Below are positions 4,107-29,721 of a stretch of DNA of 29,721 nucleotides, piece after piece (within the stretch, counting starts at the first letter, position 1; each line of letters opens with the position of its first letter). Below the pieces are notes generated by a model, which saw nothing but the letters and a program-made list of their open reading frames with translations, did not search any database and was not told the origin of the DNA. The translations under genes and the position numbers were made by a program. Source of the DNA: a virus. The stretch lies in IMG/VR virus record IMGVR_UViG_3300045988_159010, one strand, 5' to 3'.

Positions 4107-4124
4107 AGAAAGGAGAAATATTGA

Positions 4125-5339
4125 TTGTCCAGCGAAGGTAAACAATATTATTGTGAAAAATGTAATAAAACTATGGATGGCACTTAGTTTTATACATCTA
4201 ATAATTTAGATAAATATCCCAATGATGGTAAATTACCAAAATGTAAAAAATGTATAACAATGCATGTGGATAATTGGAATCCGGATACTTATCTATGGAT
4301 ATTGCAAGAATGTGATGTTCCTTATATTCCTGAATAGTGGAATTAGTTAATGGGTAAATTTGCAAAGGATAGAGCGAAAGTCACTGGAATGACAATATTA
4401 GGTCGCTATCTCTCTGCAATGAAATTAAATCAATGGAAAGATTATAGATGGAAAGATAGTCAATTCTTGCAAGATTTACAAAATAAAAAAATAGAAGAAA
4501 CAATGAAGCAATAGGGATATGATATTCAAGATATTACTACTGCTATTCAACGAGCTTCATTCTCTTTGCCATCAGAAGAATTAAAAGAGCCGCCTCCTCC
4601 CGCGCCTCCTCCCTTAGATTTTGGGAATTCTGGGGAAGATTATTTTAAAGATAAATTAGATTTTGATGTTCCTGACTTAGGCGCAGAACTGACAGACGAA
4701 GATAAACGATATCTTTATTTAAAATGGGGAAAAGGTTATAGCCCTGATGAATGGGTGCGCTTAGAGCAATTATTTAATGAAATGATGTAGTCTTACGATA
4801 TTTAGTCTGCAGGCCATATTGATACATTAAAACTTGCCTGTAAGACATCATTAAAATCTAATTAGTTATTAGATATAGGTGATGTAGACGGCGCACAAAA
4901 GATGATTAAAATGTATGATTCTTTAATGAAGTCGGGCAAATTTACTGCCGCCTAGAATAAAGAAGAGTCTGGCGATTTCATTGATTCTGTTGGTGAATTA
5001 ATAGAAATGTGTGAGAAACAAGGTTATATCGAAAGATATTACATTGATACTCCAAATGATAAAGTAGATTTTACAATTAAAGATATGCAAAAATACACAC
5101 GCACTTTAATTGAACGAGAAACTAATCTTGGCAATATGATTGATTAGGCATTAAAACAAAACGCTAAAGAAGATGAATAGGCCAAAGAAAACGTCGAAGA
5201 TACAATTGTTGATGATGTTGATATGTCTATTGAAGATATTGAAAAAACTTTGGAAGATAAAGATATCGAAGACTTTGGCGAATTTTTAGATAATGAGACA
5301 GAGTTAGATATAGATGCTTTCTCTGATAGAGAAAATTAA
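4125..5339 (+). CDS. TAG-containing protein (404 aa) with N-terminal CxxC...CKKC zinc ribbon, a proline run and an acidic C-terminus; possible small terminase subunit by position
   Basis: I verified the frame codon by codon: 10 in-frame TAG and no TAA/TGA until the TAA at 5337-5339. A TTG start follows an AAAGGAG RBS. The stop overlaps the TerL ATG (TAATG). The function is inferred from synteny only. Confidence 0.55.
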
Positions 5340-7090
5340 TGGCATTACAAGACTTGCTTGACCTATCTACCAGTAGAAAAAAGATAGGTCTTTCTGAAGA
5401 ACGTATTAATGCCGTAATGCCAGTCATTCGTAAATATACTGCCTTTTGGCGCGAATATCCAGATTTATTTGTTGATTTTTTAGTACGAGGAACACGTACA
5501 GAATAGAAAGAAGGAGAATTTAAATTTTTCTTCTATTAGCGTGTTTTCTTACGTTGTGTTATGCGTTATCAATATGTTTATGCAGTTTTCCCTCGTGCTT
5601 ATTCTAAATCATTCTTATCAGTTATGGCATTAATGGTTAGATGTATTCTTTATCCTGGTGTTCATTTATTTGTTACTTCTGGTGGTAAGGAATAGGGCGC
5701 GAGCATCTTACATGATAAAGTTAATGAAATTTGTGATTTAATTCCTAGTTTTAAACGTGAAATTGATTGGGGCCGCGGTAAGAGCCAAGAGAGTAAAGAT
5801 AAAGTTCGTTATGTATTTAAGAATGGTTCTGTCCTTGATAACTTAGCAGCAAGAGAAAGCACCCGTGGCCAGCGTCGTCATGGCGGTTTGATGGAAGAAT
5901 GTGTAGGTATTGATGATTAGATTTTGCGTGAAGTCATTATACCGGTTATGGCAATTCCTCGTAGAGCTAAAGATGGTACAACCCATGAAGAAGAAGCAGT
6001 TAATAAGTCTTAGATTTATATTACTACTGCTGGTTATAAAAATACATATCCTTATGATAGATTGATTGGTTTGTTAGTTCGTATGATTACATAGCCTGAT
6101 AGATGTATGGTATTAGGCGGTACATGGCGAACTCCTGTCGCTGTTGGATTACAATAGAAAACATTCATTACCGACCAGAAAAATGAAGGAACTTATAATG
6201 AAGCTTCCTTTGAACGTGAATATGAATCAATTTGGTCTGGTACTGTTGAAGATGCTTTCTTTAATGCCGAAATATTTAATAGAAATAGAATATTGAATTA
6301 GCCTGAGTATGAAGCTTCTGGCCGTTCAAGTAAATTATCTTATTATATATTAAGTGTTGACGTAGGCCGTAAAGGATGCGATACTGTTGTTTGCGTATTT
6401 AAAGTAACGCCGCAACCGCATGGTGAACCGATTAAAAGTTTAGTTAATATTTATACTATGAATGATACTCATTTTGAGGATTAGGCTATTAAACTTAAAA
6501 AATTATATTATAAATATAAAGCTCGTAGAATTGTAATAGATGCTAATGGACTTGGCGTTGGTTTAGTTGATTTTATGGTTAAACCACAGATTAATCCTGA
6601 AACTTCTGAAGTAATTCCTGATTTTGGTGTTTATGGTGGAACTTAGGACGATGCGGTTTAGGAATATAAAAAGTATAAAACCAATAGTACAGAATTAGAT
6701 GTTTTATATTTGATGAAAGCTAATGCACCAATTAATACTGAAGCTCATAGCATTACTTAGTCAGTATTAAATTCTGGTAAAATTAAATTTTTAATAGATG
6801 AGCGAATGGCTAAATAGAAATTATTGACTACTAAAGTTGGTTAGAATATGACTACAGAGGCGCGGTCTGATTATTTAAGACCATTTAGTTTAACTACTTC
6901 ATTACGCGAAGAGATTATGAATTTGCGCGAAGAGAATGAAGGTTTAAATATTATTTTAAAACAAGCTAATAAAAGTATTAAAAAAGATAAATTTTCTGCA
7001 TTAGAATATGGATTATATTATATAAAAAAAATAGAAGAAGATAAAAAGAAGAAAAAATTCCGGGCTGCTGATTGGATGTTTATGAATTAA
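5339..7090 (+). CDS. terL: terminase large subunit (584 aa)
   Basis: I verified the frame codon by codon: 14 in-frame TAG and a TAA stop at 7088-7090. It has an N-terminal ATPase with a deviant Walker A (FPRAYSKSF). The C-terminal nuclease domain carries a RuvC/RNaseH-like IVIDANGLGVGLVDF motif, as is typical of TerL. Confidence 0.85.
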
Positions 7091-7099
7091 GCCGGGCAA

Positions 7100-7143
7100 C
7101 TCTTATTATTCTTTTAAATTAATTTTTAAAAGAATAATAAGAG
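7100..7143 (+). terminator. perfect 16-bp AT-rich hairpin (CTCTTATTATTCTTTT / AAAAGAATAATAAGAG, 12-nt loop) just after terL
   Basis: The inverted repeat 7100-7115 / 7128-7143 is perfect. It could be a partial terminator, an RNA-processing site or the boundary of an inserted gene. Confidence 0.45.
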
Positions 7144-7178
7144 GAATTTATTTGTAGATAAGAAAGGAGACTTAATAT

Positions 7179-7535
7179 ATGGATGCCAGTCGTGCGGAAA
7201 TTAAGATTAGAGAAATCTTAGAGGAAGCCGGCCTGAATTTTAAGATGGAATATATATTTCCAGATTTAAAAACACATAATGGTCGTCCTTTACGTTTTGA
7301 TTTTGTCATATTTGATGATGATAATAATATTGATTTTTTAATTGAATATCAAGGGAAATAGCATTATGAAGCTAGTAATAAATTTGGCGGAAAACGTGGA
7401 TTATATCAATAGCAATATAATGATAATCAAAAACGTAGATTCTGTGCTTTACATGATTTACATTTAATAGAAATTCCTTATACAGAAGAAAATTTAATTT
7501 CTTATGATTATATAATGCGAAAAGCTGGATATTAA
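7179..7535 (+). CDS. DUF559/Vsr-like PD-(D/E)xK endonuclease-fold protein (118 aa), possibly a homing-endonuclease-like insert
   Basis: It has an AGAAAGGAG RBS, 2 in-frame TAG and a TAA stop. The motif RFDFVIFDDDNNIDFLIEYQGKQHY...KRRFCALHDLHLIEIPY matches the DUF559 signature (hhDFhh...IEhDGxxH ... R...L...G..hhRh). Confidence 0.5.
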
Positions 7536-7552
7536 TTGAAAGAAGGTGAAGT

Positions 7553-9241
7553 ATGGAATTAGAAAAGGAAGAATTAACCAGAAATGAATAGATACATAAA
7601 AAAGGTTTTGACATAACTGGAGGAGTACGTGAGTATTCTGCAGTTGGCCCAAATGAATATAAGAAGATTAAGGTTGGTGTTAAGACATTAGACGATGCTG
7701 TCTTAAATCTTGGATCTTTTAGATGGGACACTTATGGTCGTCGCAATGAAAAGTATAGCCGTGAACGTATTTATACAAAGCCCATGGTTATGGATGCTTT
7801 AATTCGTAATGATATTCAAGAATTGCGAAGAATATCACGCTTCTTTTTTAGAGTAAGTGGTATTTATCAAAGAGTATGTAATTATTTTGCGAATATGTAT
7901 CGTTATGATTGGGCTATTGCTATTTAGTCTAATAATACTGACGGCTCTGCTGTTAAAGATATTAATGAAACAAAAGCAGTAAAAGATTTCTGGCGAATTT
8001 TAAATTATTTAGATAATTCTTATATTAAGAAAATTTGTGGCGATATGGCTCTTGAAGTTATCAAATGTGGAGCTTATTATGCCTATATTGTTTCCTCAAG
8101 TACTGGCTTAATTTTATAGCAACTTCCTATTGAGTATTGTCGTTCAAGATATTCAGTAGGTAATTTACCTGCTATTGAATTTGATATGAGATACTTTGAT
8201 ACTTTTGTGGATACTAATTACCGTAATAGAGTATTAAAATTATTCCCTGATGAATTTACAATAGGTTATCGTCTCTATAAGGCTGGTAAACTTTTACCTG
8301 ATGTAGCTGGTGATAATACTGGTAGTTGGTATTTGTTAGATCCACAAAGCACTATTAAGTTTGCTTTAAATGGTACTAATGATATTCCATTATTTGTAAA
8401 TGCTATTCCAGCAATTTTGGATTTAGATGCCGCACAAGATTTAGACCGCCGCAAGCAGATGCAAAAATTATTAAAGATTTTAGTTTAGAAATTACCACTT
8501 GATAAAAATGGTGATTTGATTTTTGATATTGATGAAGCTCGTGATATTCATAATAATGCTGTTGAAATGTTGCGTAGAGCTGTAGGTGTTGATGTATTAA
8601 CTACTTTTGCAGATGTAGATGCTATTGATACTTCTGATAAAAATACTTCTGCTACCACAGATGAATTAGAGCGTGTTGAACGAACTGTATATAATGCATT
8701 TGGCGTTTCGCGCAATTTATTTAATACAGATGGCAATATTGCGTTGGAAAAGTCTATCTTAGATGATGAATCTACCATGCGTAATTTAATTTTGCAATTC
8801 AACATATTTTTTGATAGAATATTATCAGTCCTGAATGTTTAGAAAAAATATAATTATAAGTTCTATATGTTAGAAACTACACAATATAATTATAAAGATT
8901 TATCTAAGATGTATAAAGAGCAAACTTAGATTGGTTTCTCTAAAATGTTACCTTAGATTGCTCTTGGATAGTCATAGAGTTTTATTCTTAATACGGCTCA
9001 TTTTGAAAATGAAGTTCTACATTTAAGTGAAGTTATGATACCGCCTCTTATGAGTTCTACATTAAATGGTGAAGATATTTTGGGTAAAAAAGATTAGAGT
9101 AGTTCTAACACTTCTCAAAATAAAACAAGCGGAAATACCACTACTGTAAAAACAGAAACTAAAGAAAGTGGTCGGCCAGAAAAAGCTAATGATGAAAAGA
9201 GTGAAAAAACAATCGCTAATCGTCAAGCGGCTGGTAAATAA
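7553..9241 (+). CDS. portal protein (562 aa)
   Basis: I verified the frame: about 10 in-frame TAG and a TAA stop at 9239-9241. The call rests on its size, on its position immediately after TerL, and on a Ser/Thr/Lys-rich low-complexity C-terminal tail of the kind seen in portals. Confidence 0.7.
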
Positions 9242-9253
9242 GGAGGATTTATA

Positions 9254-10795
9254 GTGAGACATACAAGTGTTAAGTTAGATACTCCTGTTGAGTTTATTAA
9301 TATCACTAAAATCAATCCTTTAATTTCTAAATGTTAGATTAAAGTTTGTTATGTTGGTGATAAACCAAATCGCAATAGAAGTGTTATAACAAAAGAAGTT
9401 GCTAAAGATTTAGCACAAAGTTTACCAGGTAGCCCTATTGTTGGTTATTTTAATGAAGCCAATGGTGATTATGAAGAACATAATCGTATTATTGATATTT
9501 CTAATGGTAAATTTGATATCAAAGATACTACTGTTCCTTATGGTTTTGTAGACTTAGGAGCTAAAGTATGGTTTTAGAAATTTTTAGATGATGGAAAAAA
9601 CGAGCATGAATATTTAATGACTGAAGGCTATATCTGGACAGATATCTATCCAGAAAGTAAACGTATTATTGAAAAAGGTAATAATCAATCTATGGAATTA
9701 GATGATGAAAAAATTAATGCGTATTGGTCGAAAGATAAGAATGGAATGCCCGAATTTTTTATTATAAATGAAGCAATAATTAAGAAACTTTGTATTCTTG
9801 GAGAAGATTGTGAACCTTGCTTCGAAGGAGCTAATATTACTGCACCTACGATGCATTTCTCATTTAGTGATAAATTTAATGAGCAATTATTCTCTATGAT
9901 GAAAGATTTAAAAGAATTATTAGAAGGTAAAGGAGGAACAAAAGTGTTCACAAGATATAGTGTGGAGATTGGTGATTCCATTTGGACTTCTCTTTATTCT
10001 TACATTAAGGGTTTCGGAGCAGGTAATGCAATGATTGAAGAAGTTTGCGAAGACAATGGTAATTTATTTGCTATTGTCAAGGAAGATGATAAGTTCGTTC
10101 GTTTAGATTTTTCTATGGAGAATGATACTTTCACTCCTGGTGAAGTTTCTGAATTAACTGATTATTCTGTTTCTGATAATCCTCAATTCGATCCTGAAAA
10201 AGTTGCAGAATTTGCAAAGAAAAAAAAGGACGAAAAAGATAAAGACAATAAAGAGAATAATGATAATAATAAGGAAGATCCTTCTAAAGATCAGCCAAAA
10301 GATGATGAAAAGAAGGACACTCCCGAAAATAAACCAACTGATACTTCTGATGAAGAAGAAGAACCAACTGAGGATGATGAAGAGAAAAAAAAGAAAAAGA
10401 AAGCTAAGTACTCTTTGGAAGATGTAGTTGAATATGGTTTATTAAAAGACGAGTATACCGCGCTTGAAACTAAATATAATGAATTAGTTGAAAAGCAAAC
10501 ACAACTCGAACAAGAACTTGCTTCTTTAACTCAGTTTAAGACTGAGGCTGAAAGAGAAAAGAAACAAGAAATGATTAATAGTTTCTATATGTTATCTGAT
10601 GATGATAAGAAAGATGTTGTTGCTAATATTGATACTTATTCATTAGATGATATTGAAGCAAAGCTTTCTATTATCTGTGTTCGCAATAAGGTCAATTTCG
10701 ATACTAATGAAAAGAAAGAAAATGACCCACTTACATATAATATTAATAATGATGTAAATGACGATAGCATTCCTGCTTGGATTAAGGCAGTATAG
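9254..10795 (+). CDS. head morphogenesis / scaffold-like protein (513 aa) with a poly-K/E/D low-complexity segment and a C-terminal coiled coil
   Basis: A GTG start follows GGAGG. I verified the frame: 2 TAG near the N-terminus, then an open stretch to the TAA at 10793-10795. The charged KKKKDEKDKDNKENN...EEEEPTEDDEEKKKKKK region and the coiled-coil segment (LETKYNELVEKQTQLEQELASL) fit a scaffold-like role, as does its position after the portal. Confidence 0.6.
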
Positions 10796-10843
10796 GATGT
10801 TGCGAAAACTATGGAATAATAAATTTTTAAGGAGGAAAACCTA

Positions 10844-11620
10844 ATGCTTTTAAAAGATATGCTTAAAGACCTAAGCGGCGTATCTGCTGTTAAGGGCGGC
10901 TACGTTGAATATGGCTATGGTCAGGTTGAGCCTAATCATTTAAGTGCTCAACGCACTGGTCAGATTTATGCTCAATTACCTGCTAACAGAAATATCCAGC
11001 TTCTTGAAAATGGCCAGTTTGTTAAGTATGACTATGCTGCTGGTGAGCTTGGTGAAGTTGATTTCACTGGCAAGGGCGAATGGATGTTAGTTTATAATGA
11101 AATTAAACTTTATCGTGAGGAACAAGCTGATTGCGAATTTGCTATGCGCAAAGATGATTATCAAGCTCGTTATTACAGCCCCTATGATGGCAAGCAGGAA
11201 ATTGGTACACGTCAGGCTCGCTATTTAAATGGTAAGGATGCCGAAGGTAATACTTCTATGACTATTACAGATAGTCAGGGTGTACAACATACTTATGAAT
11301 ATGATGATGTCACTGCTGGTCCTGATATTCGTGAACTCTTCTATGAAGAAGATCCTTTACACTTTGATGGTCCTTATGAGGCCCGTAGAATGCCTGCTGG
11401 CACTAATATGGTTCCTCGTGTTTTCAAGACCAATGTTGGTGATATTTTTACGACTAATACTATTGCCGAAGCTACTCTTGTAGTTGGTGATATTTTAAGT
11501 CCTCGTGCTGCTGATGGTATGCTTTCTAAGACCGGTGATGGCTCTATCCAGTGGTAGGTTGTCAAGGTTTATGAAATGCCTGATCATCAGAAGGGCGTTA
11601 AGATTATGCGAATCGCGTAA
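10844..11620 (+). CDS. head protein (258 aa), TAG-free except one near the C-terminus
   Basis: It has a very strong RBS (TTAAGGAGGAAAACCTAATG) and GC visibly higher than the neighbouring genes. The single TAG at 11555-11557 is followed by 20 more sense codons before the TAA at 11618-11620. Confidence 0.6.
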
Positions 11621-11637
11621 GAAAGGAGAGAAGAAAA

Positions 11638-12774
11638 ATGTTAGATAGAAAAAATCTTGTTCAATTAATGAAGACTGTCGCTAAGGCTGATCCTTCTACT
11701 CCTACTGCTTACAGCTTTAATGGCGAAAGCCTTTCTTATGATGCTCTTAATGAAACTCTCCGCAGAGAATTAAATGAACTTGCTGGAACTTATTCTTTAT
11801 ATCGTGATAATAAGAACCTTATTTTCTCAATGATTGAGGAAACTATTGATGAAGTTCTTCCTAAGAAAGTTGAAGAGCAATATAATCAGTTTGCTGAAGT
11901 TAAGACGTTTAAACAGGGTGACAAGCCTATTTTCCGTAGAAAGTTCAGCAACAATACTCGTGCAAAGCAATTCATCACTCGTGTCGGCCTAGCTGGTATC
12001 TATGAAGTATTCAAGCTTGGTAAGACTGAAGAATGCTTTGAAGTCCGTACAAGTGCTATCGGCGGAGCTGCTCAAATTGGCTTTGAGGAATTCCTTGATG
12101 GCCGTGTCGATTTTGGTGTTGTTACCCAGATCGTCATGGAAGGTATGGATGACCTTATCTATAAAGAAATTGCCGGTGCTTTAAAGGCTTCTGTTAACCA
12201 GTTACCTCCTGCTAACCGTTTAGTTGCTAATGGTTTTGATGAACCCGGTTTTGATAAGTTACTTATGATTGCTTCTGCTTATGGCACTCCTACTATTTAT
12301 TGCACTTATGAATTTGCTGTTCGTATGATTCCGAAGGATGCTTGGCGTTATACTGAAGCTATGAAGAATGAGCTTTGGAACACTGGCCGTCTTGCTTCCT
12401 ATAAGGGCTATAAAGTTGTTATTCTTGAGCAGGGCTTTGAAGATGCTACCAATGAAAAGAAAGTCATTGACCCAGGTTATGCTTGGATTATTCCTACTGG
12501 TGCTGATAGTAAGCCTGTAAAGGTTGCTATGGAAGGCAATACCATTGTTGATGAATATACCAATTATGATCGTAGCCGTGAAATTCAGGTTTATAAGAAA
12601 GTTGGCGTTATTGCTATGTTAGCTAATAACATCTGCTGCTATTGTGATACTGAACTTCTTGGTGATATGAAGACATGGCATCTTGATGGCGTAACTGGTA
12701 AGGTCCGTGACTATGCTGGTCAAATTACTGGTTCTCATGATACTATTGATGGCGGTAACGAAGATAAGCCGTAA
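11638..12774 (+). CDS. major capsid protein candidate (378 aa)
   Basis: It has a GAAAGGAGAG RBS, no TAG codons, and elevated GC with biased codon use, which is the signature of a highly expressed gene. A strong intrinsic terminator follows, and the gene sits at the canonical position after the scaffold-like genes. The function is inferred from position and expression signals. Confidence 0.5.
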   Translation: MLDRKNLVQLMKTVAKADPSTPTAYSFNGESLSYDALNETLRRELNELAGTYSLYRDNKNLIFSMIEETIDEVLPKKVEEQYNQFAEVKTFKQGDKPIFRRKFSNNTRAKQFITRVGLAGIYEVFKLGKTEECFEVRTSAIGGAAQIGFEEFLDGRVDFGVVTQIVMEGMDDLIYKEIAGALKASVNQLPPANRLVANGFDEPGFDKLLMIASAYGTPTIYCTYEFAVRMIPKDAWRYTEAMKNELWNTGRLASYKGYKVVILEQGFEDATNEKKVIDPGYAWIIPTGADSKPVKVAMEGNTIVDEYTNYDRSREIQVYKKVGVIAMLANNICCYCDTELLGDMKTWHLDGVTGKVRDYAGQITGSHDTIDGGNEDKP

Positions 12775-12809
12775 TTGATATTAACTAAAAATTAATATAT
12801 AATATTTTT

Positions 12810-12850: not shown

Positions 12851-12872
12851 ATGAGTAAAAGGAGAATAAAAA

Positions 12873-13439
12873 ATGAATAAAAAAGTTTTATTAGTTACTA
12901 ATAGAAGTGCTGGAATGGTCGTTTATACTATTCCTGAAGAAGGCATTCGTAGAGAATTCACACCTGGTGAAACTAAAAAAATTCCTTTTGAGGAATTAGA
13001 GAAGCTTGCTTACCTTAGCGGAGGCCGCACCTTAATGGAAAATTTCTTAAAAATTGTAGATACTCAAACTACAGAAGAATTGGGTATTCATACAGAACCT
13101 GAATATTATTTAGATGATGCTGGAGTTATTAAGCTCCTTACTGAGGGAACTCTTGATGAATTCCTTGATTGTCTTGATTTTGCTCCTATTGGAGTTATTG
13201 ATATGATTAAGAGCTATGCTGTATCTCTTCCTATGAGTGATTATAATAAGCGTAAAGCTCTTAAGGATAAGACTGGATTTGACCTTGATAGAGCATTAGC
13301 TAATAAGGAAGCTGAAGCTGCGGAGGATGAACAGATTACTCCAAAAGCTCCTGAACGTAGAGTGAAGACTGAAACTAAGCCTACAACGCCTCCTGGTCGT
13401 AGAACTGCTCCTCGTTATAATGTTGTAAAAGAAGGTTAA
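12873..13439 (+). CDS. hypothetical structural protein (188 aa), TAG-free
   Basis: Intact ORF with an AAAGGAGAAT RBS. The C-terminus is Pro/Thr/Arg-rich. Confidence 0.65.
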   Translation: MNKKVLLVTNRSAGMVVYTIPEEGIRREFTPGETKKIPFEELEKLAYLSGGRTLMENFLKIVDTQTTEELGIHTEPEYYLDDAGVIKLLTEGTLDEFLDCLDFAPIGVIDMIKSYAVSLPMSDYNKRKALKDKTGFDLDRALANKEAEAAEDEQITPKAPERRVKTETKPTTPPGRRTAPRYNVVKEG

Positions 13440-13461
13440 TTATAAATAAGGAGGGTTTTAT

Positions 13462-14073
13462 ATGACATATTTTTATAAAGTTTATGAACGTTTTTTAGGC
13501 AAAGTAACAGATGATATGTATTTAGAACTTACTCCTCGTGATACATTTTTAGATTTACGCCAATTACTTGTTGATAGTATTCCTGGATTTGAATTTCCGC
13601 GTAAACGATTAGATTACGTTTTAGTAGATGAAGATGCTCCTGATTTTATAAAAGGAGAGATTGATGGCGGAGATATTGATATACCATTAGGTGGAGATTT
13701 GTTTGAAGAAGTAGCTGGTAGTAATATTGATATAGATAATGCTTTTTAGGAGATATTTTCTGAGGAAAATACCTCCTATTTTAATGCCGATTTAGATGAT
13801 GAAGAAATTAATATCTTAGCTTTAATCATGGTTGAAGCTTGGGTGGAACGTCAATTGGCATCTATCGAAGTAACAAGAATGAAATATTCTGGAACAGATT
13901 TTAAATTTACTTCATAGGCAAATCATATGTAGAAATTGTTATCATTGAGAACAGAAGTAAGACGTCAGGCATTTCATATGTAGAGATTATATAAACGTCG
14001 TAAAACTGATGATGATGGATATATTAAATCCAATTGGTCTGTTCTAAGGGAGGTAAGCGCCCTTGATGACTAA
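13462..14073 (+). CDS. hypothetical head-tail joining region protein (203 aa)
   Basis: It has a TAAGGAGGG RBS. I verified the frame: 4 in-frame TAG and a TAA at 14071-14073. Confidence 0.6.
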
Positions 14074-16772: not shown

Positions 16773-17864
16773 ATGAAATTTGGTGTTCGTGAAATATGCG
16801 ATGTCGTATTAAAAGCTCGTGCTCCTATGAAGGTTGGTAATAAAGTTTTCTATGCGAACGAACCAGTTCTTTATTTCGATACATTAAAAACTTCTAGCCT
16901 TGAAGGTGCTTCTACGACCGTATATGCACAAGGCGGACGCGGCAATGCTCGTTTAGTAGCTTGGGACGGTGACCGTACTTTAACATTCACTATGGAAGAT
17001 GCTCTTATTTCTGCAGAAGGTTTCATGATTCTTGCTGGAGCTGGCCTTATTGATGCTTCTAAACAGAATACAATTAAGCAACATGTAACTGAAAAGACTA
17101 CTGCTGTGGCTCTCTCTGAAGATAAGGATAGTGTACAAATTTTTATTAAAAATTTACCATATGAACAAATTGATACTACCACGGGTGCTCATAAAGGTGA
17201 ATATTATATTTATGCTATGCGTGTTGACAATGATGAACCAGTAACTGAGCCTTATCTTCCTACAGTTATTCGTCAAACTGAGGCGGGGGCAGTTGCGAAA
17301 CCTCAAAAGTTCTATTTTGATGAAACTGAAATGAAGTATAAGACTTGTACTGATGCAGAAGCTGATACTAAGGCTAAAGCTGGTACTTAGATTTATTATG
17401 GTCTTTAGATTAAGGAAATTACTTCTGCTTATAAGATTGTTGATGAAGCTGAAGCTAATGCAGTACATAAATTAGAATTATTTAAAGATTCTGTTGTTCT
17501 TCTTGATTATTATATTGAGAAGGCTAGCAATGCTCGTCAAATTGAAATTACCGCTGAATCTTTTGGTGGCAACTTCTATCTTGAAGCTTCTACCTTATTC
17601 CGTACTCAGGATGGTGTTGATCTTCCTGCCGAATTTATAATTCCTAACTGCAAGATTCAGTCTAACTTTACTTTCAGTATGGCTGCTACTGGCGATCCTG
17701 CAACTTTCACTTTCACACTTGATGCTTTCCCAGGAACTACTCGTTTCAATCCTACTAAGAAAGTATTGGCTGCTGTTCAGGTCATTGAAGATATTGATAA
17801 TGATAGTGTCTATCGTACTCAAACTATCCATGATCCGATGCATGACAGCTATTTTGATATTTAA
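16773..17864 (+). CDS. major tail protein candidate (363 aa)
   Basis: It has a very strong RBS (TTAAGGAGGAAATAACCTATG) and only 2 TAG codons (17388, 17406). GC is elevated. A strong terminator follows after a small downstream ORF. The function is inferred from position and expression signals. Confidence 0.5.
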
Positions 17865-19511: not shown

Positions 19512-20039
19512 GTGGCGAAAATAGCTTTTACAAAACTCTCTCTCCAGAAAAATTCAGAAATAAGAAATTGGCAATATAATGATCAAATTATTGAAGTAAA
19601 ATAGTATCTTCCAATAAAAGAGAGAATGGATATTGCTTAGTCGGTCATTCAACAAGTCATTGATTTTAATAATGAATTTTTGAATGAATTTGCTTTCCAT
19701 ATGTATATGGATTTAGCAATAGTATTTAATTATACAAATTTATCTTTTACTGATAAACAGAAAGAAGATTTGTATAAACTTTATGATTTACTTGTTGGTT
19801 CAAGGTTTATAAAAGAGTTAAAGAAACAAGTAAATTGTAATCAAATTGATGATTTAGAAGTCTATACTTATGAAATGCTTAATGGATATTATAAATATCA
19901 TAATAGTGTTTATGGGATTATGGATGCTATGAATCAGAATTATTCTAATTTAAATTTAGATGTTAATGAATTACAAGATAAGATTTCTAATCCTGAAAGT
20001 CTATCTTTAGTAAAAGATATTTTAACCAAGATGGGTTAA
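19512..20039 (+). CDS. possible tail assembly chaperone (175 aa; minimal standard-code version 19680-20039)
   Basis: A GTG start follows AAAGGAAGTGAG. There are 2 in-frame TAG and no TAA/TGA across the 56 codons upstream of the ATG at 19680. The gene sits immediately upstream of the tape measure and is bounded by its own promoter and terminator. The function is inferred from position only. Confidence 0.45.
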
Positions 20040-20113: not shown

Positions 20114-20151
20114 GTATATAGAAATTTATAATGAGAGAAAGGAGCTATTTT

Positions 20152-23100
20152 ATGGCTAATAACAGTGCTAATTATAATGTTAATATGCGATTTACAGCTG
20201 ATACAGGTCAGGCTAAATAGCAATTACGAGATTTACAAAGTTCATTAGATACTTTAATGAATTAGATAGCAACAAAAAATATTAAATTTTTTGATGTTAA
20301 TGCCACTAAAAAAGAAATAGATGAAGCCTCGGCAGCAGTTTAGGAGTTAAAAATTGCTTTAGATTAGGCGACTAATGTTAATACTGGACGTTTAGATTTA
20401 TCAAAATTTTCAAAGAGTTTAAGTTAGAGTGGCTATACTCTTTAGGATTTTGCTACACATTTAGAGAATCTAGGTCCAACAGGTGATAAAGCATTTGTTG
20501 CGTTAGCATAGTCTGTTATTAATGCTGAAGTTCCTTTAAAAAGAACTAATGCTTTATTAGATAATTTTAAAAAAACATTAGCTAATACAGCCAAATGGCA
20601 AATTTCATCTAATTTAATGCATGGAGTATAGGGTTCTTTATAGAAAGCTTATTATTATGCAAAAGATTTAGATAAATCATTAAACGATATTCGTATAGTT
20701 ACTGGATAGAGTAGCGATCAAATGGCTTAGTTTGCTGAAAAGGCAAATAAGGCTGCTCAAGCATTAAGTACAACTACTACTAATTATACTAATGCTTCTT
20801 TAATTTATTATCAATAGGGTTTAAGTGATAAAGAAGTTGCTGATCGTACTGAAGTTACTATTAAAATGGCGAATGCAGCAGGTGAAAGTGCTTCTAAAGT
20901 ATCCGATTAGTTAACTGCTATTTGGAATAACTTCTATGATGGGAGTAAATCTCTTGAGTATTATGCAGATGTAATGACTAAACTTGGTGCATATACTGCT
21001 TCTAGTACTGATGAAATCTCAGAAGGTGTATAGAAATTCGCATCTGTTGCTAATACTATTGGTCTTAGTTATGAATATGCTACATCTGCATTAGCTACAT
21101 TAACTGCTAAAACACGTGAAAGTGCGAACACAGTAGGTAATAGCCTTAAAACTTTATTCGCTCGTATTTAGGGTTTGACTCTCGGAGAAACTCTTGAAGA
21201 TGGTACTGATTTAAATAAATATTCTAAAGCCCTTGAAAAAGTTGGTATTAGTATTAAAGACCAATAGGGTGAGTTAAAAGATATGAATACTATCCTTGAT
21301 GAAATGATGAATAAGTGGGATAGTTTAAGTCGTGCTGAACAAGTGGCTCTTGCATAGACTGTTGGTGGTGTTCGTCAATATACTCAATTAGTTAATCTTA
21401 TGGAAAATAAAGATTATTTTAAAGAGTTAGTTGGAGTGGCTAAAAATTCTGAAGGTACTTTACAAGAACAAGCTGATATTTATGCTGAAAGTTGGGAAGC
21501 TTCTAAGAAGCGAGTACAAGCTTCTCTGGAAGAAATTTATAAGCAATTAGTTAATGATAAATTTTTTATTGGATTAAATGATACATTAAGTGATACATTA
21601 AATATTACAAGTAAATTAATTGATTCATTAGGTGGATTACCTGGCGTATTAAGTGTCATTTCTACTTTAATGTTAAAGAGTTTCGGTCCTGATATTGTAA
21701 ATAACATGCAGCGTATGGCTTCTAACTTGTTTATTGATAGCGGAGCTGCTGAAAATTAGGCTGCGGTTATGAAAAAAGCGATGATTTAGACATTACAATC
21801 TTTCTCGCCTGAATCTAAAATGGAATTATCAGATTAGGGTTCTGTCACATTAGAAACTACTACAATGATTAATGCAGCTTAGGCATCTTATGATTTATAG
21901 ATAGCTAATAGTCAATTAAATGAAACAGATAAATTAAGACTTTAGACTTTACTAAAAATTTCTTAGGTTTATGGAGATATCGCTGTATAGGCTAAAAGAA
22001 GTATTGAAGTCCAGCAGCAGTAGACTTAGAATAATTTACGAGATGCAAGAAATTAGATTTTTCTTACTACTAATGAAAATTTTGGTGGAGAAACTGGCGT
22101 AAAATATTTTGATAAAAATTATAAAGCTGGACAAAAATTAATTGATAGTTTTTATAATAATAAGGTTTTAAAATAGTTAAATTCTTAGAAATTTGATAAT
22201 AGTGATTCTTATTAGAATTTTTTGGCTAAATTTGATAATATTAAAGGATTAAATACTGATTAGAGATTTGACAAATTAAATCAATTATTAAATAAAGCTA
22301 AAGGAGCTTCTAATAAGCCAAGTAATATTTAGTCTCGATATAGAAATTAGATTATAGAAGAAATAAATAATTTAAAAGATGTTAATGTAGTTTTAGATAA
22401 ATATGTAAACAATAAAGCTAGTGCCGATGGAGCAACTAGAAAATAGATTGAAGCATTACGTCAATGTTTAAATGGGTATGTAAAAGAAAAAGAAGCTTTA
22501 ATACAAAGTAATAATGCCAATAAAAAATATACAGACTCAATAAATGATTTCGAGAAAACTTTGGCAAAAAGTCAAGGAGCCGTTATGACTTTTTCTTAGG
22601 GATTGGTTTCGGGCGCGTAGGGAATCTCTTAGTTGGCTATTGGTATTAATAGTATCCATGGTGCTATATAGGCTTTAAATAGCGAAGATTTAACCTTTGG
22701 TGAAAAAGTATTTTAGATGACTACATCGCTATCTATAGCGATTCCTTCTATTATAAATGGTTTTACTAATTTACAAAAAAGTATATAGAGCATTAATAGT
22801 AGTAAAGGATTAATTGGAACAAATATTTTATAGTTAGTTACTGGGTTAAATGAAATTAAAGAGGCAAATTTAGGCGCTGAATTATAGAAATTAAGTGCAG
22901 CCAGCAATACTTCTGGTTTAAGGTTTAAAGCTTTAAAAGCTATGACTGATGCTTATAATACTAGCATGGAAGGAGCTAAAGTTGGAGCTAATGGATTAAC
23001 TAAAGCTATGGCTGAATAGGCGGCTGGTACTGCAGCTTTAAAGGCTGGTATTAAAGCTGTGGCTGGATCTTTAGGCATTTATATAGCCATCGCTGCGGCG

Positions 23101-26100
23101 ATAGCTGCAATTATTGCAGTTATAGTCCATTTAAATGAAGTAGCAAAAACTAAAACTTTAGAATCTTAGTTAGCTCGTTCTGAAGAGGCTGCTGCAAATT
23201 TTGAAAAACAATTAGAAAAAACAAAATCTAAAGCTGAAGAATTAAAAAATGTTTTTAATAATTATAAAAATATTAAAAAATCTTTAGATGAATGTACTAT
23301 AGGAACAGAAGAATGGCGAAAGAAACTTCAAGAGACTAATGAAACAGCACTAGAAATATTAAAAAATTATCCAGAATTAAAAAATATTGAAGGCGCTTGG
23401 GGTAAAAAAGACACAGGAGAAATTTGGATTGATGAATCGGCGCTAAAGGGTTTACAATCTGAATATGATAATAAAATTTTATCTCAGTCTTATAATTTAG
23501 CTAGACAAAATTAGAATAGTAATGAACTTAAAAATGCTATAGCTTGGAAAAATAATTTTAATGATATAACTTTATCTTATGGAGCTACTTTTAATGATTT
23601 AGAAGGTTCTTATCGTCCTGAAAAAGATGAAAGAACTTTTAATGCTTTAGAATATATTAGAAATAATTTCTAGAATTATAAAGGTTATTCGGATGATTTA
23701 ATTCTTAAGGATATTTACTCTTATTTAAATAAAGAGGGATATAATAATATTGAAGGTTAGGCCTATTAGGAAAAATTAACTTAGTTTATAAATGAAATTA
23801 ATCCTACTTTATAGTCTTTGATTTCTACCATAGAAGAAAATACAGATGCTACTTTGCAAGCGGAGCAAGAAAGTGTTGTCCAATAGAAATTAGGCAAAAC
23901 TAATATGTCTTCTCAAGAAGTTAAATTAACCACAGAAGCTTATAACAATGCCATTGAAGATAAAATAGCTGAAATGAAAAAAGCAACTAGCATTTGGGAT
24001 GGCAAATGGAATGGAACAATAACTTATGATGGACTAGAAATTGGTACTCATGGTGAAAATGCTCGTAACAGCCAATAGGTTAAAGATTTATGGGATGTAT
24101 ATTTAAAATCATAGGGTATTGATATAAATGATAGTGATTATAGACTAAATTAGCAAAATTCTGTAAAAGGTAAAGGACAAGATAGATATTTTGTTTATGG
24201 CCAAGACTAGAAAGTTTCTTTTGAAGAAGTTATTTAGGCAGTTGCTTAGTATGAAGTGGATTAGGGTAATTTCTTAACTGAATTAAATTAGGCAGCTACA
24301 AATTTTTTAACTAATCTTGGAAAAATTCAATACACTGATGAAACTAAGTAGAAAATTGAATCTGGAGGAACTTTAGGAAAAGGTTTAAGCAGTTTTATTG
24401 GTAATAAGGATTTAACTGAATTAACTTAGGAAGAAATAGATAATTTAGGAGAATTAACTGAGGATACTTTAAAAGAGCGTGTAGCTGCTGCTATGGGATT
24501 TGATTATGCTAAAGCTACTAAAGAATAGTTAGCTGAATTAGATGATTAGCTAATAGCTATTTATGGGGCTGTTGGAGTTGATTCCGGAGAAGAATTTGTT
24601 GAATAGTTTAATACAGCTATTATAAATTATGGAAAAGAAACAGAGAAAATTGCTAATTCATTTTATGGTAAATGGGCTACAGCAGAAAATCTAAATTCAT
24701 TTACTTTAGAGGTACAAAAAAAATTAAAATCTACTTTTGTAGATGTTTTTAGAGTAAGTGGAGAAGAAGGAATTGCTGTCTTTAAAGAAATAATATCTAA
24801 ATACGGATCTGATTTAACTCCAGAATTATTAGATTTAATTGGAGATTTTGATTGGACTTAGAGTGGAGCTATTGATAATTTTATATCAGCTTTAGAAGAT
24901 TTAGGTATTTTAACTGATGATAATACTGAAGCCTGGAAAAGATTTTCTAGTCAAATGGCTGAAGCAGCTAATAATTTACCGATAGATAAATTAACTAATT
25001 TACGAGATATTTTAGAAGATATATACAAATTATTAGGTAAAGATGTTGGTTCAATTTTTTCTTAGGAAGATATTGATAAATTAACATTAGGCGGATATGA
25101 TATTGAAGGGCATTATGCTCAAGTTGGTTCAGACGAATATGTTAAAACTAGAGATTATACTACTGAAGAAAAAAATAAAGCTTATGAACAACAAATTCAA
25201 ACTGCTAAGAAAAAAAATGAAATAATTTATGGTGCTAATGATTATAATTAGGCCTAGGTACAATCTAAAGTAGATAGTTGGGGAAAATATGGTGACAAGT
25301 ACATTTCAGGAGAATGGGATAACTTAAGTTCTTCTTATGTAAAGAGTTATATTGACAGCATTGGAGGTATTGAAAATGCTGCTACTATAACTGGATGGGA
25401 TTAGGATAATTTTTCTGATGAATATTTAAATAGTATAACTTCTTAGGAACGTGCTGAAATTGTTGATGCAATAGTAAAGGGAATTAATAGTGTTTATAAT
25501 GGACAAACTGATACTGGTGTTATAACTACTTCTCATTTATATAATAGTTCAGACTCTATAAATGAAATGACTTAGATGGAAGGGTTCCGTGATGAAGAGG
25601 GATCTGTATCAGATTCTGGAATTGAAGCTATTAGTGGAAAATTAGCCGGGTCAGAGGAAGGTTTAGAATTATTACATAAATATTAGGATGAAATAAAAAA
25701 TGTCACTAAAGGTACTGAAGAATGGGATAAAATAACTAATCAATTCATTAAAGATAGTCAAGGTTTAGAATATAAAGAATAGGCAAAAGAATTAGGAAAT
25801 TATAATGATAAATTAAAAGAAGCAAAAAAAGCTGGCGAAGATTATGAAGAAGAACTAGGTAATGTAAGAAAATAGCTCAATAAAATGCTTGATATCGAGG
25901 TAGATGATGATTTCATTGAAGAATATCAAGATTAGATTGATAAAATGCTTAGTGGTAAGACATTAGAAGAACGCCAAAGTGCCGCTAATACAATTAAATT
26001 CTAGGCTGAATTAGATAAAGAAGATATTGAATCTAAAATACCTGATGAACTTTAGAATGAAATTATGCCTATGTTATAGAATAATTTGCCTAAATTAGAA

Positions 26101-29100
26101 CTAGACGCTGAGGGAAAAATTGTAATGACTGGCGATAGTGGCCAAGCTGTAGCTGCCATCGGATAGGTAATAGCAGCTTTATAGGCTGCCGGTGTTCCTG
26201 CTGAAAGTATAGCTGAAATTTTAAGAAGCGTTTTGGGTACTGATATAACTATTAGCGGAGATGGTATAGAATAGTTTGCTGAATTAGCCAAAGCTCTAAC
26301 TTCAGGAGATTTAGAAGCTATTGCCAAGTGGTCTGAAACTTATAATGATGGTAAAGATCTTTTAAATTTAAGTGGTTCTGGCCGTACGGCTAATGTTACT
26401 CCTAATTATGCTTATGAAAATGGTGGTTCTAAAGGCGGCGGAGGCGGTGGAGGTAAATCTACTAAATCTGCTAATGATATTGGCAAAGAAATTCAAGATG
26501 AGAAATTAAAAACTTATGAAAAGAAACGTGAATTATTAGAAGCTAAACGTGATGGAGCTAATCCAGAAGATGCTGCTAAATATATTCAAGAAGAAATTGA
26601 TTTACTTGAAGAAGAACAAGATATTCTTGAAGATTAGATTAAATCTTGGAAAAAGTTATTAAAAGTTAAAGTAGAAGAATTTAATAAAGATCACCCAGAG
26701 TTTGAAATAAAACTTACTGATGATGGTGAAATTGCCAATGCATCTGAATTATGGGGCAAAGTTTGGGCGCAATATCAAAAAAATCTTGAAGATGGTATGA
26801 GTGAAGAAGACCTAAATGAATGGTTTACTAAAATTAAAGACAGTCTTGATGGTCCTATGGGTATTCAATAGAATATTGATGAAAATGTTGCTCTCATTGC
26901 TTAGAAAGAAAAAGAAGCTGCTGAACTTGAACTTGAAGCTATTACAAAATAGATTGACTGGAAAGTTAAGTAGATTGATTTTTAGATTAAACGTCTTAAC
27001 TATTATCAAGAAAAACTTCTTAAATAGGCTCATGGTAATAAATAGACTATTGAAGCAATGCTTGAAGGATTTGCTTACCAAGAGCAAGAAATGCTATAGC
27101 TCTTTGATAAAGGCGCCACATTACGCTAGGGCATTGATTAGTTAAATGCTGCGAAAGCTAAATATCCAGGTTATGAGTAGATGTTTGATGAACAAATACT
27201 TGAATACCAAAGTGATTTAATTGATGTTAATGAGGCTATTCTAGACTTACGTAATGATATTGAAGATTTGGTCTAGAACGTTTTAGATTTGGCACTTGAT
27301 GAAATTGATAAGTAGATAGAACGTCTTGATACTTATACATCAATGCTTGACCATCTTAATAATATTATTGATTTATCTGGTCGTTCAATGCTTGATATGG
27401 GATTAAAAACTTAGATTGGTGCTACTAAAGTAGAAACAATGTTAGGTAAAATGAAATCCTTAAAAGGTCAAATGGATGGTTTAACTAAAGCTACTAAAGA
27501 AGCATAGGCCGCGCTTGCTGATCGTTAGGCTGATGGAGATACATCTTCCGTAAAATTCTGGGAAAACCAAGTTGAAGTATTGAAACAAGAAACTGAAAAA
27601 GCTTCTGATGAATTTTTAGCTTCTTGGGAAGAAACTCTTGAAGCAGCTCAGGATTTATTTGAAATGCGTGTTGAAATGGCAGTTAATATATTAAGTAATG
27701 CTTTATCACCGTTTGAAACTCTTGAAGATTTCCAAGATAAATATGAAAAGGCAAAAACTATTAATGAGCAATACCTTGATGATGCTGACCGTTTATATGA
27801 GTTGAATAAATTAAATCGTTAGCTAAATTTATAGCTAGCTGATGCTAATGACCTTTTAGCTAAACAAAAACTTAGAGACATTTAGCAAGAGATTCACGAT
27901 CTTTAGGCCGATGGCGTCCAGATGAGCCAGTATGACCTTGAATACTTATAGAAAAAATATGATCTACAGCTTGCTGAGATCGCTCTTATGGAGCAGTAGA
28001 ATTCAAAAACTTCAATGCGTTTAGTGCGTGATGCCGCGGGTAATTGGACTTATGCTTATGATGCAGATGAAGAAAAAATTGAAGACGCCACATAGAAATA
28101 TGAAGATGCGGTTCATGAATTAGGTAAGTTAAGTAAGGATTATATTAATGATGTAAGTGAATAGTTAATTTAGAATCAAATTGATTTTAAAGAAGCCTTA
28201 CAAGATCTTGATAAAAACTCTGCGGATTATTCAAATCAGCTATTATCATTGCAAGAGTATTATGTTGAAAGACAAAGATATTTACTTGATGAATTAAATA
28301 AAGGTGTTGTAAATAGTGGATTAACATTCCATGATACTCTCTACGGCCAAATGACTGATTTGTATGATTATAATGATGCTTATATGTTATTTGTTAATAA
28401 TTCTAATACTACAATTAGTGAATTACAAACCAATTATAAAGATTGGCAAAAAGTTGTTGAAGCAGCAATGAACGTTGCTGGTACATCTTGGGAAACTTTC
28501 GGTTCTGATATGGGCGGCACTCTTGATAGTCTTGAAGAACATATTCAAAAATTATGTGATGAAATTGAAGAACTTGTTAATGTATTAATGGGCTATATTT
28601 CTTAGTCTATTGGAATGGTTCTTGATTGGGAATAGAAATATTCTAAGCGAACTGATGAAGAATTAGCTAAAAATGAATAGTATATTGATGGTAACTTTGG
28701 TAGTAGTGGTAGCGGCGGATTAACTTATGATATTGGTGTTGATTATAGTGCTGCTATAATTTCTTTAAGTAAAAATGGTGGTACTTATACAGATGAAAGT
28801 GGCCGTACTTGGACTACTGATGACATCAAAACTTTGAAAGATATCCGTAATTTAAAATTATCTGATATGGAATAGGAAGGTTCATAGATTTTAAAGAATG
28901 GTTCTTCTACTGATTATTGGTCTGAAGAAGAAAAGAAAGAAATTACAACTAATAAAAATGCAGAATGGTTAGATAAAGTTTTAGGAAATGGTGCAGCTTC
29001 TGGTGCCTATACAGGCAATTGGGCTAAAGGACAAGGTTTCGGACCTGATAATGGTAGAATTATTAAAGTTCATCCTAAAGAATTAATTCTTAACCAAAAA

Positions 29101-29376
29101 GATACTTCTAATATACTTCGTGCAGTTGATATTGTTCGTAATATGAATGATTGGGTTGATAAACAAGTACAATCAATGATTAATTTTGGATAGATAAAAT
29201 TAGGTAATTTGATTGATAAAACTACTCCACCTGTTTATGAAACTTAGCCAATTAAGCAAGAAGTTACTATTCAAGCAGACTTCCCAGGAGTTACTGATCA
29301 TTATGAAATTGAAGAAGCATTGTCTAATCTTAGTAATAATGCGGCTCAATATATAAGTGCAAATAAATCTAAATGA
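20152..29376 (+). CDS. tail tape measure protein, TP901-family core (about 3074 aa) with about 115 in-frame TAG codons
   Basis: It has a GAAAGGAG RBS. I read every codon of frame 1 from 20152 and found no TAA/TGA until the TGA at 29374-29376. The region 20700-21760 matches the conserved TP901-type tape measure core (...AEKANKAAQALSTTTTNYTNASLIYY..., ...LTAKTRESANTVGNSLKTLFARI..., ...GELKDMNTILDEMMNKWDSLSRAEQVALA...). There is a hydrophobic transmembrane-like segment (GIYIAIAAAIAAIIAVIVHL, about 23070-23140), extensive coiled-coil repeats and a Gly run (GGSKGGGGGGGK, about 26425). Confidence 0.85.
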
Positions 29377-29402
29377 GGAGGATTAATTTCCTCCTCATTT
29401 TT
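29374..29402 (+). terminator. hairpin/terminator overlapping the tape measure stop (TGAGGAGG-ATTAATTT-CCTCCTCA followed by TTTTT)
   Basis: A perfect 8-bp stem is followed by T5. It is probably a leaky terminator or an RNA structure between the tape measure and the distal tail genes. Confidence 0.55.
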
Positions 29403-29422
29403 GAGGAGAGAAAGGAGTTAAT

Positions 29423-29721
29423 ATGGCTTATAATAGAAAAGAAGAATATTTAGCTACTATAAAAAAGCCAAAAGAAATAACAGATGCCTTATTAGAGACT
29501 ATAGATTATATAGCACGGGCACGTGATGCTGAATTATCATTTGATAAAACTATAATTGCTGAAGTTATAAGTCTAAACGATGCCAGTACTGGAGAATATT
29601 TTGTTGAATATCAAAAAGGGAAATTTCGTGCTTATGCCCCAACTACATTAACTTATGTATATTCTAAAGGAACTAATGTATATGTAAAAGTACCAGGCGG
29701 TGATTTTACTCAAAAAAAAAC
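29423..29721 (+). CDS. tail protein, N-terminal part only (distal tail protein position; runs off the right edge)
   Basis: It has a GAAAGGAG RBS and an open frame to the end of the window (MAYNRKEEYLATIKKPKEITDALLETIDYIARARDAELSFDKTIIAEV...). The call rests on its position immediately after the tape measure. Confidence 0.5.
   Translation, partial: MAYNRKEEYLATIKKPKEITDALLETIDYIARARDAELSFDKTIIAEVISLNDASTGEYFVEYQKGKFRAYAPTTLTYVYSKGTNVYVKVPGGDFTQKK

Follow-up and report, generated by a model that had tools for sequence, protein, structure and literature searches.

Sequence Evidence for Glutamine-Encoding Amber Codons in the Late Operon of an SPbeta-Like Gut Siphovirus

Introduction

Reading of the amber codon (TAG) as glutamine (Gln) in late genes is already well documented in phages, including a distant relative of the phage treated here. 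The present analysis concerns the IMG/VR virus record IMGVR_UViG_3300045988_159010, whose 29,721 nucleotides (32% GC) are referred to as the window, and in particular the TAG codons that lie in frame within its plus-strand late operon. A code switch that times the late, lytic genes has been proposed by Borges et al. (bioRxiv 10.1101/2021.08.26.457843). The clades of that study (Lak, crAss-like, Garnet, Amethyst, Sapphire, Agate, and Topaz) consist, like the window phage, of low-GC gut phages, and in-frame TAG for Gln is found in their structural and lysis genes, the others being readable under the standard code. The recoding of replication genes is variable in these clades; in the clade of the window phage, a 1333-aa PolIII-alpha-like gene contains no TAG and the neighboring NrdD gene contains nine. 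One large-genome clade, with a mean of 201 ± 22 kb, would fit the size of the window clade. In the crAss-like phages, which share the change from TAG to Gln in late genes, code 15 has been confirmed by proteomics (Peters et al., 2022; PMC9523058), and this is, going by what that report presents, the only direct protein-level proof of the phenomenon. The crAss-like phages are nevertheless an unrelated podovirus lineage that infects Bacteroidota.

The closest described recoded system is phAss-1 (OQ749652), a 136 kb human-gut siphovirus reported in 2023, in which TAG is read as Gln and three tRNA-Sup-CTA genes are present (Babkin et al., PMC10607447). It is filed by NCBI under "Caudoviricetes code 15 clade." As in the window phage, its terminase large subunit (TerL), portal, tape measure, and other virion genes are recoded from TAG to Gln, and the tape measure proteins of the two are both about 3100 aa long (3149 aa in phAss-1 and 3081 aa in the window phage). 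The phAss-1 genome and the window clade also share the same module of TerL, portal, and YonB-like capsid genes, as well as NrdG–NrdD, which follow the late module on the other strand. The standard code leaves the capsid homolog intact in both phages; in phAss-1 it lies within a single standard-code CDS (38085-39122) and thus has no in-frame TAG. The differences are considerable: identity is only 42% for TerL and 49% for the capsid protein, no match exists at the nucleotide level, and the genomes measure about 187 kb in the window clade against 133-138 kb in phAss-1 and the proposed Phassvirus group. Moreover, two tRNA-Sup-CTA genes stand directly beside nrdD in phAss-1, whereas no tRNA is found beside nrdD in the window clade. 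Members of the proposed genus Phassvirus share 80-86% nucleotide identity (PMC10607447); the window phage falls outside this range, with no megablast match in a phage collection that holds OQ749652.

A third point of comparison is provided by SPbeta-like and related siphoviruses of Bacillota, such as Geobacillus E3, Enterococcus EF1 and VRE9_4, Brevibacillus Sundance, Bacillus PBC2 and FADO, and Lactococcus 949. These phages have a homologous TerL (32-47% identity), a YonG-like neighbor, a portal, and the same gene order as the window, and some of them carry a homing endonuclease at the TerL locus. Their genomes span 115-170 kb and, in contrast to the window phage, they use the standard code: their TerL genes lack in-frame TAG, and one of them ends on TAG. 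Judged by the Yon and Yom Pfam families of its orthologs, which lie on contigs of 185-188 kb, the window comprises the divergent early/late junction and the virion operon of an SPbeta-like, low-GC gut siphovirus of about 187 kb.

TAG as a Sense Codon in the Late Operon

In the plus-strand late operon, from position 3042 (sigma-like gene) or 4173 (first virion gene) to beyond the end of the window, TAG is a sense codon. When it is treated as such, the plus-strand stop-to-stop open reading frames (ORFs) of at least 100 aa increase from 3783 to 9947 aa in total, and the longest one from 405 to 3108 codons, while reading TGA as sense brings no gain (3920 aa). Between 4107 and 29721, start-to-stop plus-strand ORFs of at least 100 aa cover 24.4% of the sequence under table 11, 94.9% under tables 15 and 16, and 24.4% under tables 4 and 25, and their mean length rises from 188 aa under table 11 to 462 aa once TAG is sense. 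Coding density under tables 11 and 15 thus differs fourfold, in agreement with a preliminary description of the sequence, which had proposed that TAG is reassigned throughout this region. Long frames free of TAA and TGA are not expected by chance, since these two codons make up about 9.6% of the codons in the two non-coding frames of the late genes (1640 in approximately 17,000); by arithmetic from this figure, a run of 3108 codons without either would have a probability of about 1e-136.

Once TAG is read as sense, the region 4107-29721 contains 17 complete plus-strand genes and one that is cut off at the window end. They form a tight, same-strand operon with ribosome-binding sites and several overlapping stop/start junctions, the back-to-back arrangement that had been described before. 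Across these 18 genes there are 199 in-frame TAG codons and 222 CAA/CAG codons, so that TAG accounts for 47% of the Gln codons of the operon. No TAA or TGA is found in frame inside the late genes and both still terminate: 16 of the complete genes end on TAA and one, the tape measure gene, on TGA. The base that follows the codon differs slightly between the two kinds of codon, with A at +4 after 80 of 198 TAG and after 66 of 219 CAA/CAG codons.

The preliminary description had already noted that every gene ends on TAA or TGA and that CAA/CAG remain in use, and its TAG counts for TerL (14), the gene in the position of the terminase small subunit (TerS; 10), and the tape measure (115) are reproduced by recounting. 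Other figures require correction. The gene at 15959 contains nine TAG rather than 11; the standard-code fragments number about 216 rather than about 100, given 199 in-frame TAGs; and the block, which was placed at 4107-29721, is indeed recoded there but has its first TAG-containing gene at 3042.

Homology runs unbroken across the TAG positions of TerL, the portal, and the tape measure protein, both in profile matches and in tblastn, as the preliminary description had anticipated. TerL gives single unbroken tblastn alignments over 91-95% of the protein, at 32-47% identity, with cultured phages. The portal profile match extends over residues 83-559. The tape measure protein matches the full PF10145 profile (96.3 bits), TIGR01760 over residues 166-504 (121 bits), and 11 tape-measure PHROGs, and all these matches span several TAG positions. 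The three proteins are therefore recognizable by phrog_2, phrog_2739, and PF10145/TIGR01760, respectively. Of the profile models that had been named for this purpose, those for the tape measure (TIGR01760, PF10145) were effective, whereas TerL and portal were not retrieved by the Pfam models and were found via PHROGs. In the Pfam search, nothing significant was obtained for TerL, portal, capsid, and eight other window proteins. Functions were consequently assigned via PHROGs and via Pfam families precomputed on orthologs that are 97-99% identical.

Evidence That TAG Encodes Glutamine

Comparison with orthologs indicates that TAG is read as glutamine in the late operon, as had been suggested from the context of individual codons. 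Thirteen window genes were aligned codon by codon with their orthologs in three related genomes (L005, L007, and L009; 54-94% protein identity). TAG sites face gaps in 1 of 65, 0 of 66, and 0 of 66 cases, respectively, that is, at most one gap in about 65 sites, which means that they align with residues. Where the window TAG is not conserved, the ortholog has CAA or CAG at 24 of 52 (L005), 31 of 40 (L007), and 20 of 29 (L009) of the non-TAG sites, and the reverse comparison, of ortholog TAGs with window codons, gives the same picture. The commonest replacement of TAG is CAA, which is two base changes away, as would be expected of a synonymous exchange and not of one between mutational neighbors. 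In a likelihood test in which the substitution frequencies of each alignment itself served as the model, Gln was the maximum-likelihood residue for TAG in all three genomes, with a lead over the runner-up of 56, 100, and 70 log-likelihood units.

Independent support comes from phages that use the standard code. TerL was aligned with its homologs from seven cultured phages (Geobacillus E3, Enterococcus VRE9_4, Alicyclobacillus KKP_3916, Brevibacillus Sundance, Bacillus PBC2 and FADO, and Lactococcus 949), none of whose TerL genes has an in-frame TAG, one of them using TAG as its terminator. At the 14 columns that correspond to TAG in the window, Q occupies 29 of 98 cells, against an overall background of 3.6%. 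All seven homologs have Q at sites 67 and 382, and nearly all have it at sites 119 and 225.

A very close relative, L001, was also compared with the window between 4173 and 16693, where the proteins are 95-100% identical. Of 67 window TAGs, 56 are identical in L001 and nine are CAA/CAG there; seven TAGs of L001 are in turn CAA/CAG in the window, and two-step TAG/CAA differences are included among these. Such differences suggest either fast synonymous turnover or recombination among co-circulating strains.

Graded Use of TAG Among the Late Genes

The late genes do not use TAG to the same extent. Five of them (the YonD-like gene, the gene at 10844, the YonB-like capsid gene, the gene at 12873, and the YomU tube gene) have together six TAG against 49 CAA/CAG codons, while the remaining late genes have 193 against 173 (Fisher p = 1.4e-9). 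The same five genes are TAG-poor in three diverged relatives. Their GC content is 36%, compared with 30% in the other late genes, within a late-gene range of 24-39%. TAG is dense in low-copy proteins, namely TerL, portal, tail proteins, and the tape measure. The simplest reading is that the TAG poverty of abundant virion proteins would reflect selection against a codon that is read less efficiently.

Early Genes, Divergence Point, and Sigma-Like Gene

Upstream of the late operon, the minus strand carries seven small early genes that are almost free of TAG, in a region (window 1-2900) with 39-45% GC. In four relatives, the early genes contain one or two TAG per 1256-1682 codons, and their called stops are all TAA or TGA. 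It is important to note that in the closest IMG/VR relative, L160 (IMGVR_UViG_3300045988_152007), the early gene at 10001-10360 ends on TAG at the place where six orthologs have TAA or TGA; TAG is thus still a terminator in early genes of the lineage. TAG as a stop in early genes and as a sense codon in late ones is what a switch of code in mid-infection predicts.

Two divergent sigma-70-type promoter-like sites separate the early and late genes (Table 1), and the second one precedes a sigma-factor-like gene, the first TAG-containing gene of the plus-strand block. Its single in-frame TAG (3330-3332) is kept in four of five relatives (L001, L004, L005, and L009) and is a Gln codon (CAA/CAG) in the fifth (L007). 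The sigma-like protein, identified by a PHROG match, had no match in Pfam or in sequence searches of the Protein Data Bank (PDB). The presence of TAG in a candidate late sigma factor may couple late transcription to the code switch.

Within the early region, about 680 nt (1215-1894) are without a convincing ORF and without an Rfam match. A perfect 10-bp bidirectional terminator-like hairpin lies at 1865-1888, and minus-strand promoter-like sites are found at 1489-1461 and 1599-1571.

Organization of the Virion Operon and Genome Surroundings

The features of the window are collected in Table 1.

Table 1. Genes and other sequence features of the window, with two tRNA genes of a sister-clade contig; positions refer to the window unless a contig is named, and starts marked as corrected replace earlier ones.
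Feature	Position	Strand	Description
Seven small early genes	2872-2717, 2681-2244, 2122-1894, 1202-798, 742-407, 371-183, 148-<1	-	Almost TAG-free
Perfect sigma-70-type promoter-like site	2902..2930	-	TTGACA-17-TATAAT, 12/12; faces the small early genes
Near-consensus sigma-70-type promoter-like site	2985..3013	+	TTGACT-17-TATAAT, upstream TG, 11/12; precedes the sigma-like gene
Sigma-factor-like gene	3042..4106	+	354 aa, one TAG; TTG start (corrected) after GGAGG; phrog_5767 "sigma factor," E=1.4e-46
YonG-like gene	4173..5339	+	388 aa, 10 TAG; phrog_3314; PF27269 YonG_N on ortholog
Terminase large subunit (TerL), SPbeta YonF-like	5339..7090	+	583 aa, 14 TAG; phrog_2
HNH/homing endonuclease	7179..7535	+	118 aa, 2 TAG; phrog_9084, phrog_559; between TerL and portal
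Portal protein	7553..9241	+	562 aa, 10 TAG; phrog_2739, E=7.9e-74
YonD-like gene, scaffold position	9254..10819	+	521 aa, 3 TAG; GTG start (corrected) after AAGGAGG; phrog_3313
Virion-module gene, no function assigned	10844..11620	+	258 aa, 1 TAG
YonB-like probable major capsid protein	11638..12774	+	378 aa, no TAG; PF27364 YonB on ortholog
Virion-module gene	12873..13439	+	188 aa, no TAG
Three genes in head/tail-completion position	13462-14073, 14066-14359, 14379-15347	+	4, 3, and 6 TAG
YomW-like gene	15369-15959	+	4 TAG; PF27256/PF27211 on orthologs (YomW/YomV pair)
YomV-like gene	15959-16693	+	9 TAG; phrog_6123, phrog_4051 (YomW/YomV pair)
YomU-like tail tube protein	16773..17864	+	363 aa, 2 TAG; PF27173 YomU_Tube on ortholog; phrog_2729
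Gene in chaperone position	18076-19395	+	439 aa, 14 TAG; no PHROG match
Gene in chaperone position, before tape measure	19512-20039	+	175 aa, 2 TAG; GTG start (corrected); no PHROG match
Tail tape measure protein	20131..29376	+	3081 aa, 115 TAG; ends on TGA
Next tail gene, start only	29423..29721	+	Cut by the window end; no TAG in 99 codons
Sister-clade tRNA(UCA) and tRNA(CUA)	IMGVR_UViG_3300045988_110853 (L114), 7726-7805 and 9078-9167		80 nt and 90 nt, respectively

The gene order, YonG–YonF (TerL)–YonE (portal)–YonD–YonB, followed after several genes by YomW–YomV–YomU (tube) and further on by the giant tape measure, is that of an SPbeta-type virion module, since the orthologs carry the families YonG_N, YonD_N, YonB, YomW, YomV_2nd, and YomU_Tube. 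The gene that the preliminary description placed in the TerS position does lie there, but its product is a YonG-like protein and not a recognizable TerS. The YonD-like orthologs carry PF27290 (YonD_N), are called at 512-528 aa, and start directly after the portal gene. Distant homologs of the YonB-like protein occur in Bacillus phages Thrax1, Thrax3, and Kirov, where they carry the annotation "major capsid protein"; a sequence search of the PDB with this capsid candidate gave no match, and its single-sequence AlphaFold model was unusable (pLDDT 37). The last gene, which is truncated in the window, has an ortholog of 1098 aa with 25 TAG in a related contig (L019).

Homing endonucleases are also found in Enterococcus phages, inside TerL in EF1 and just after it in VRE9_4, and the TerL locus is therefore a recurrent insertion site. 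Two PHROGs with no assigned function separately score better than the terminase family, each on one half of the window TerL: phrog_15503 (245 positions) on the N-terminal half and phrog_24618 (230 positions) on the C-terminal one. Recoded TerL genes that were broken up under the standard code may have supplied part of the sequences behind these two families.

In relatives, the operon continues downstream with at least five more tail genes (233-1201 aa, 8-27 TAG each). These are followed by a holin-like gene and two small plus-strand genes, the last of which ends at about 132 kb of a 188 kb relative. Past that point the strand flips, and RuvC-like, dUTPase-like, NrdG, and NrdD genes are found. 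The best protein matches of TerL are a 12 kb unannotated human faecal fragment (62%), standard-code Bacillota phages (32-47%), and phAss-1 (42%); a megablast search with 20 kb found no counterpart among GenBank phages. In the protein collection that was searched, TerL has more than 7000 homologs, of which about 100 are full-length proteins of 583 aa, 95-98% identical, on contigs of 185-196 kb; the gene calls of that collection must already treat the lineage as recoded, because these proteins are full length. Phage-sized contigs of the lineage (164 and 175 kb) sit inside public metagenome bins. Labeled Mollicutes, Clostridium sp., and Muribaculaceae, these bins probably contain phage genomes that were binned wrongly, and a host assignment from them was rejected, as the labels are inconsistent.

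The Proposed Code Switch and Its Decoding

The best explanation as a whole, which we regard as very probable, is that TAG is read as Gln in the late operon of an SPbeta-like siphovirus, which would infect a standard-code host and acquire amber-suppressor decoding as infection proceeds. The host would use the standard code, and the early genes would be readable under either code. At a late stage of infection, TAG would be decoded by an amber-suppressor tRNA(CUA) that carries Gln. Because TAG decoding would arise only at that stage, the virion and lysis proteins could not be completed before the switch. Decoding would also have to succeed almost every time, since 115 TAGs must be read one after another to make a single tape measure.

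Several observations weigh against this explanation. The amber suppressor tRNA that the preliminary description expected elsewhere in the genome was not found where it was sought. The window contains no tRNA of any kind and no Rfam family. The contig of the closest IMG/VR relative (188 kb) was walked in both directions with five protein anchors, and no tRNA was detected by ARAGORN or Rfam in the 83 kb between 63.2 and 146.4 kb, about 105 kb of it lying beyond this interval; Rfam had no match in 102 kb of relatives. Since both the window and these 83 kb lack a tRNA, we infer the decoding agent of the window phage rather than observe it. A sister clade, whose NrdD region is syntenic with that of the closest relative at 65-78% nucleotide identity, does have a dispersed tRNA array, which includes a tRNA(UCA) and a tRNA(CUA) of 90 nt; the latter has a long variable arm and hardly varies between contigs of that clade. 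The exact sequence of this tRNA(CUA) occurs in seven contigs, none of which belongs to the window clade. Neither is the early/late division of TAG absolute, as a TAG stands nine codons ahead of the TAA in the early AbrB/MraZ-like gene (2122-1894, minus strand) and is followed by a conserved tail. Finally, the only matches among species genomes are metagenome bins labeled Mollicutes, Clostridium, and Muribaculaceae (L149-L153).

Other searches for the decoding machinery yielded the following. The sister-clade tRNA(CUA) resembles one of the phAss-1 suppressors, and its long arm is odd in a phage with TAG as Gln, because such arms normally mark Ser, Leu, and Tyr tRNAs. A generic scan for the pattern of a CUA anticodon and T-loop included one sister-clade contig among the matches listed, and an AAA-ATPase anchor that adjoins the sister-clade tRNA array recovered the sister clade only. 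Nothing could be learned from the pairwise identities of suppressor tRNAs with tRNA-Gln. A contig with 17 tRNAs, including a tRNA(CUA), was reached through a NAGPA/SPOR lysin anchor (L284); it shares no genes with the explored region except a mobile GIY-YIG gene, is not linked to the window clade, and was not counted. Among the genes inspected, none encodes a release factor or a tRNA synthetase, most early-region and small ORFs never having been scanned for them. In the TAG-recoded genomes of Borges et al. (bioRxiv 10.1101/2021.08.26.457843), a TAG suppressor tRNA is detectable in only 40%. The most likely mechanism, and a reasonably probable one, is that another part of the phage genome encodes a tRNA(CUA) which the host GlnRS charges.

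Alternative Explanations

Long variable arms define the tRNA class that is recognized by SerRS, LeuRS, and TyrRS, and the 90-91 nt tRNA(CUA) of related phages has such an arm. This leads to the question of whether TAG is sense but stands for another amino acid, such as Leu (table 16), Tyr, Lys, Trp, or pyrrolysine. From ORF structure alone tables 15 and 16 are indistinguishable, and ARAGORN labels CUA tRNAs as "Pyl" by default. The idea is nonetheless extremely improbable in view of the lead of 56-100 log units that Gln has in three independent ortholog sets, the two-step change to CAA as the commonest replacement, the invariant Q at TerL TAG sites in seven standard-code phages, and the rarity of Leu, Tyr, and Ser at TAG sites. 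It is also very unlikely that TAG remains mostly a stop, whether its rare read-through attenuates expression or the genes are decaying pseudogenes of a dead prophage. Such a situation would agree with the scarcity of TAG in the virion proteins that are made most, as if the codon were costly to read; yet an essential tape measure of 3081 aa with 115 TAGs needs near-complete decoding, since an efficiency of 97% per site would, by arithmetic, leave about 3% of full-length protein. Moreover, no in-frame TAA or TGA has accumulated, the proteins are 54-99% identical across many independent assemblies, on contigs of 185-190 kb, and TAG occupies invariant functional Q positions of TerL. That the in-frame TAGs could be an artefact of sequencing or assembly is hardly credible: nothing in support of it was found, assemblies made independently of one another (ENA, Logan, IMG/VR, and NCBI) contain the same TAGs, and 56 of the 67 compared window TAGs are identical in L001.

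The remaining alternatives accept that TAG is Gln and differ in how it comes to be read. If the host itself natively reads TAG as Gln, the phage would mirror the host and no switch would occur during infection. In favor of this, host matches consist only of inconsistently labeled metagenome bins, and no suppressor tRNA is present in 83 kb of the window clade. It is very improbable all the same, because the early genes are nearly TAG-free against 47% of Gln codons in the late genes, an early gene of the closest relative ends on TAG where its orthologs have TAA or TGA, and the nearest cultured relatives infect standard-code Bacillota. No bacterium with TAG as Gln is known. In the same direction, standard-code hosts are predicted for most TAG-recoded phages by Borges et al. 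A further possibility, rather doubtful, is that the clade switches its code without an ordinary phage-encoded amber suppressor tRNA, or that the switch is wired into transcription. In the latter case, the putative late sigma-like factor, which stands behind a host-type promoter and carries a TAG kept by most relatives, would be completed, and late transcription would start, only once TAG is read. If this were true, the entire virion operon would lie behind a checkpoint at the level of translation, and the capsid, scaffold-position, and tube genes would be so poor in TAG because its decoding is incomplete or costly.

Significance

From a practical point of view, the code has to be set to table 15 for this phage, because the standard code fragments its late genes. 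As the preliminary description had warned, a standard-code annotation misses these genes: it returns about 200 fragments, and TerL, portal, and tape measure are lost. For the related phAss-1, the GenBank entry still shows such fragments. The window phage is a very common gut phage, frequent in public assemblies, and the protein collection searched here already holds full-length versions of its proteins. The established picture of phage recoding is unchanged, and the value of the locus is mainly practical. It nevertheless constitutes a well-resolved example of recoding from the SPbeta-like lineage of Bacillota phages, and it offers the code-switch model three details: a graded avoidance of TAG in the virion proteins made in greatest amount, a surviving early TAG terminator, and a TAG in a candidate late sigma factor.

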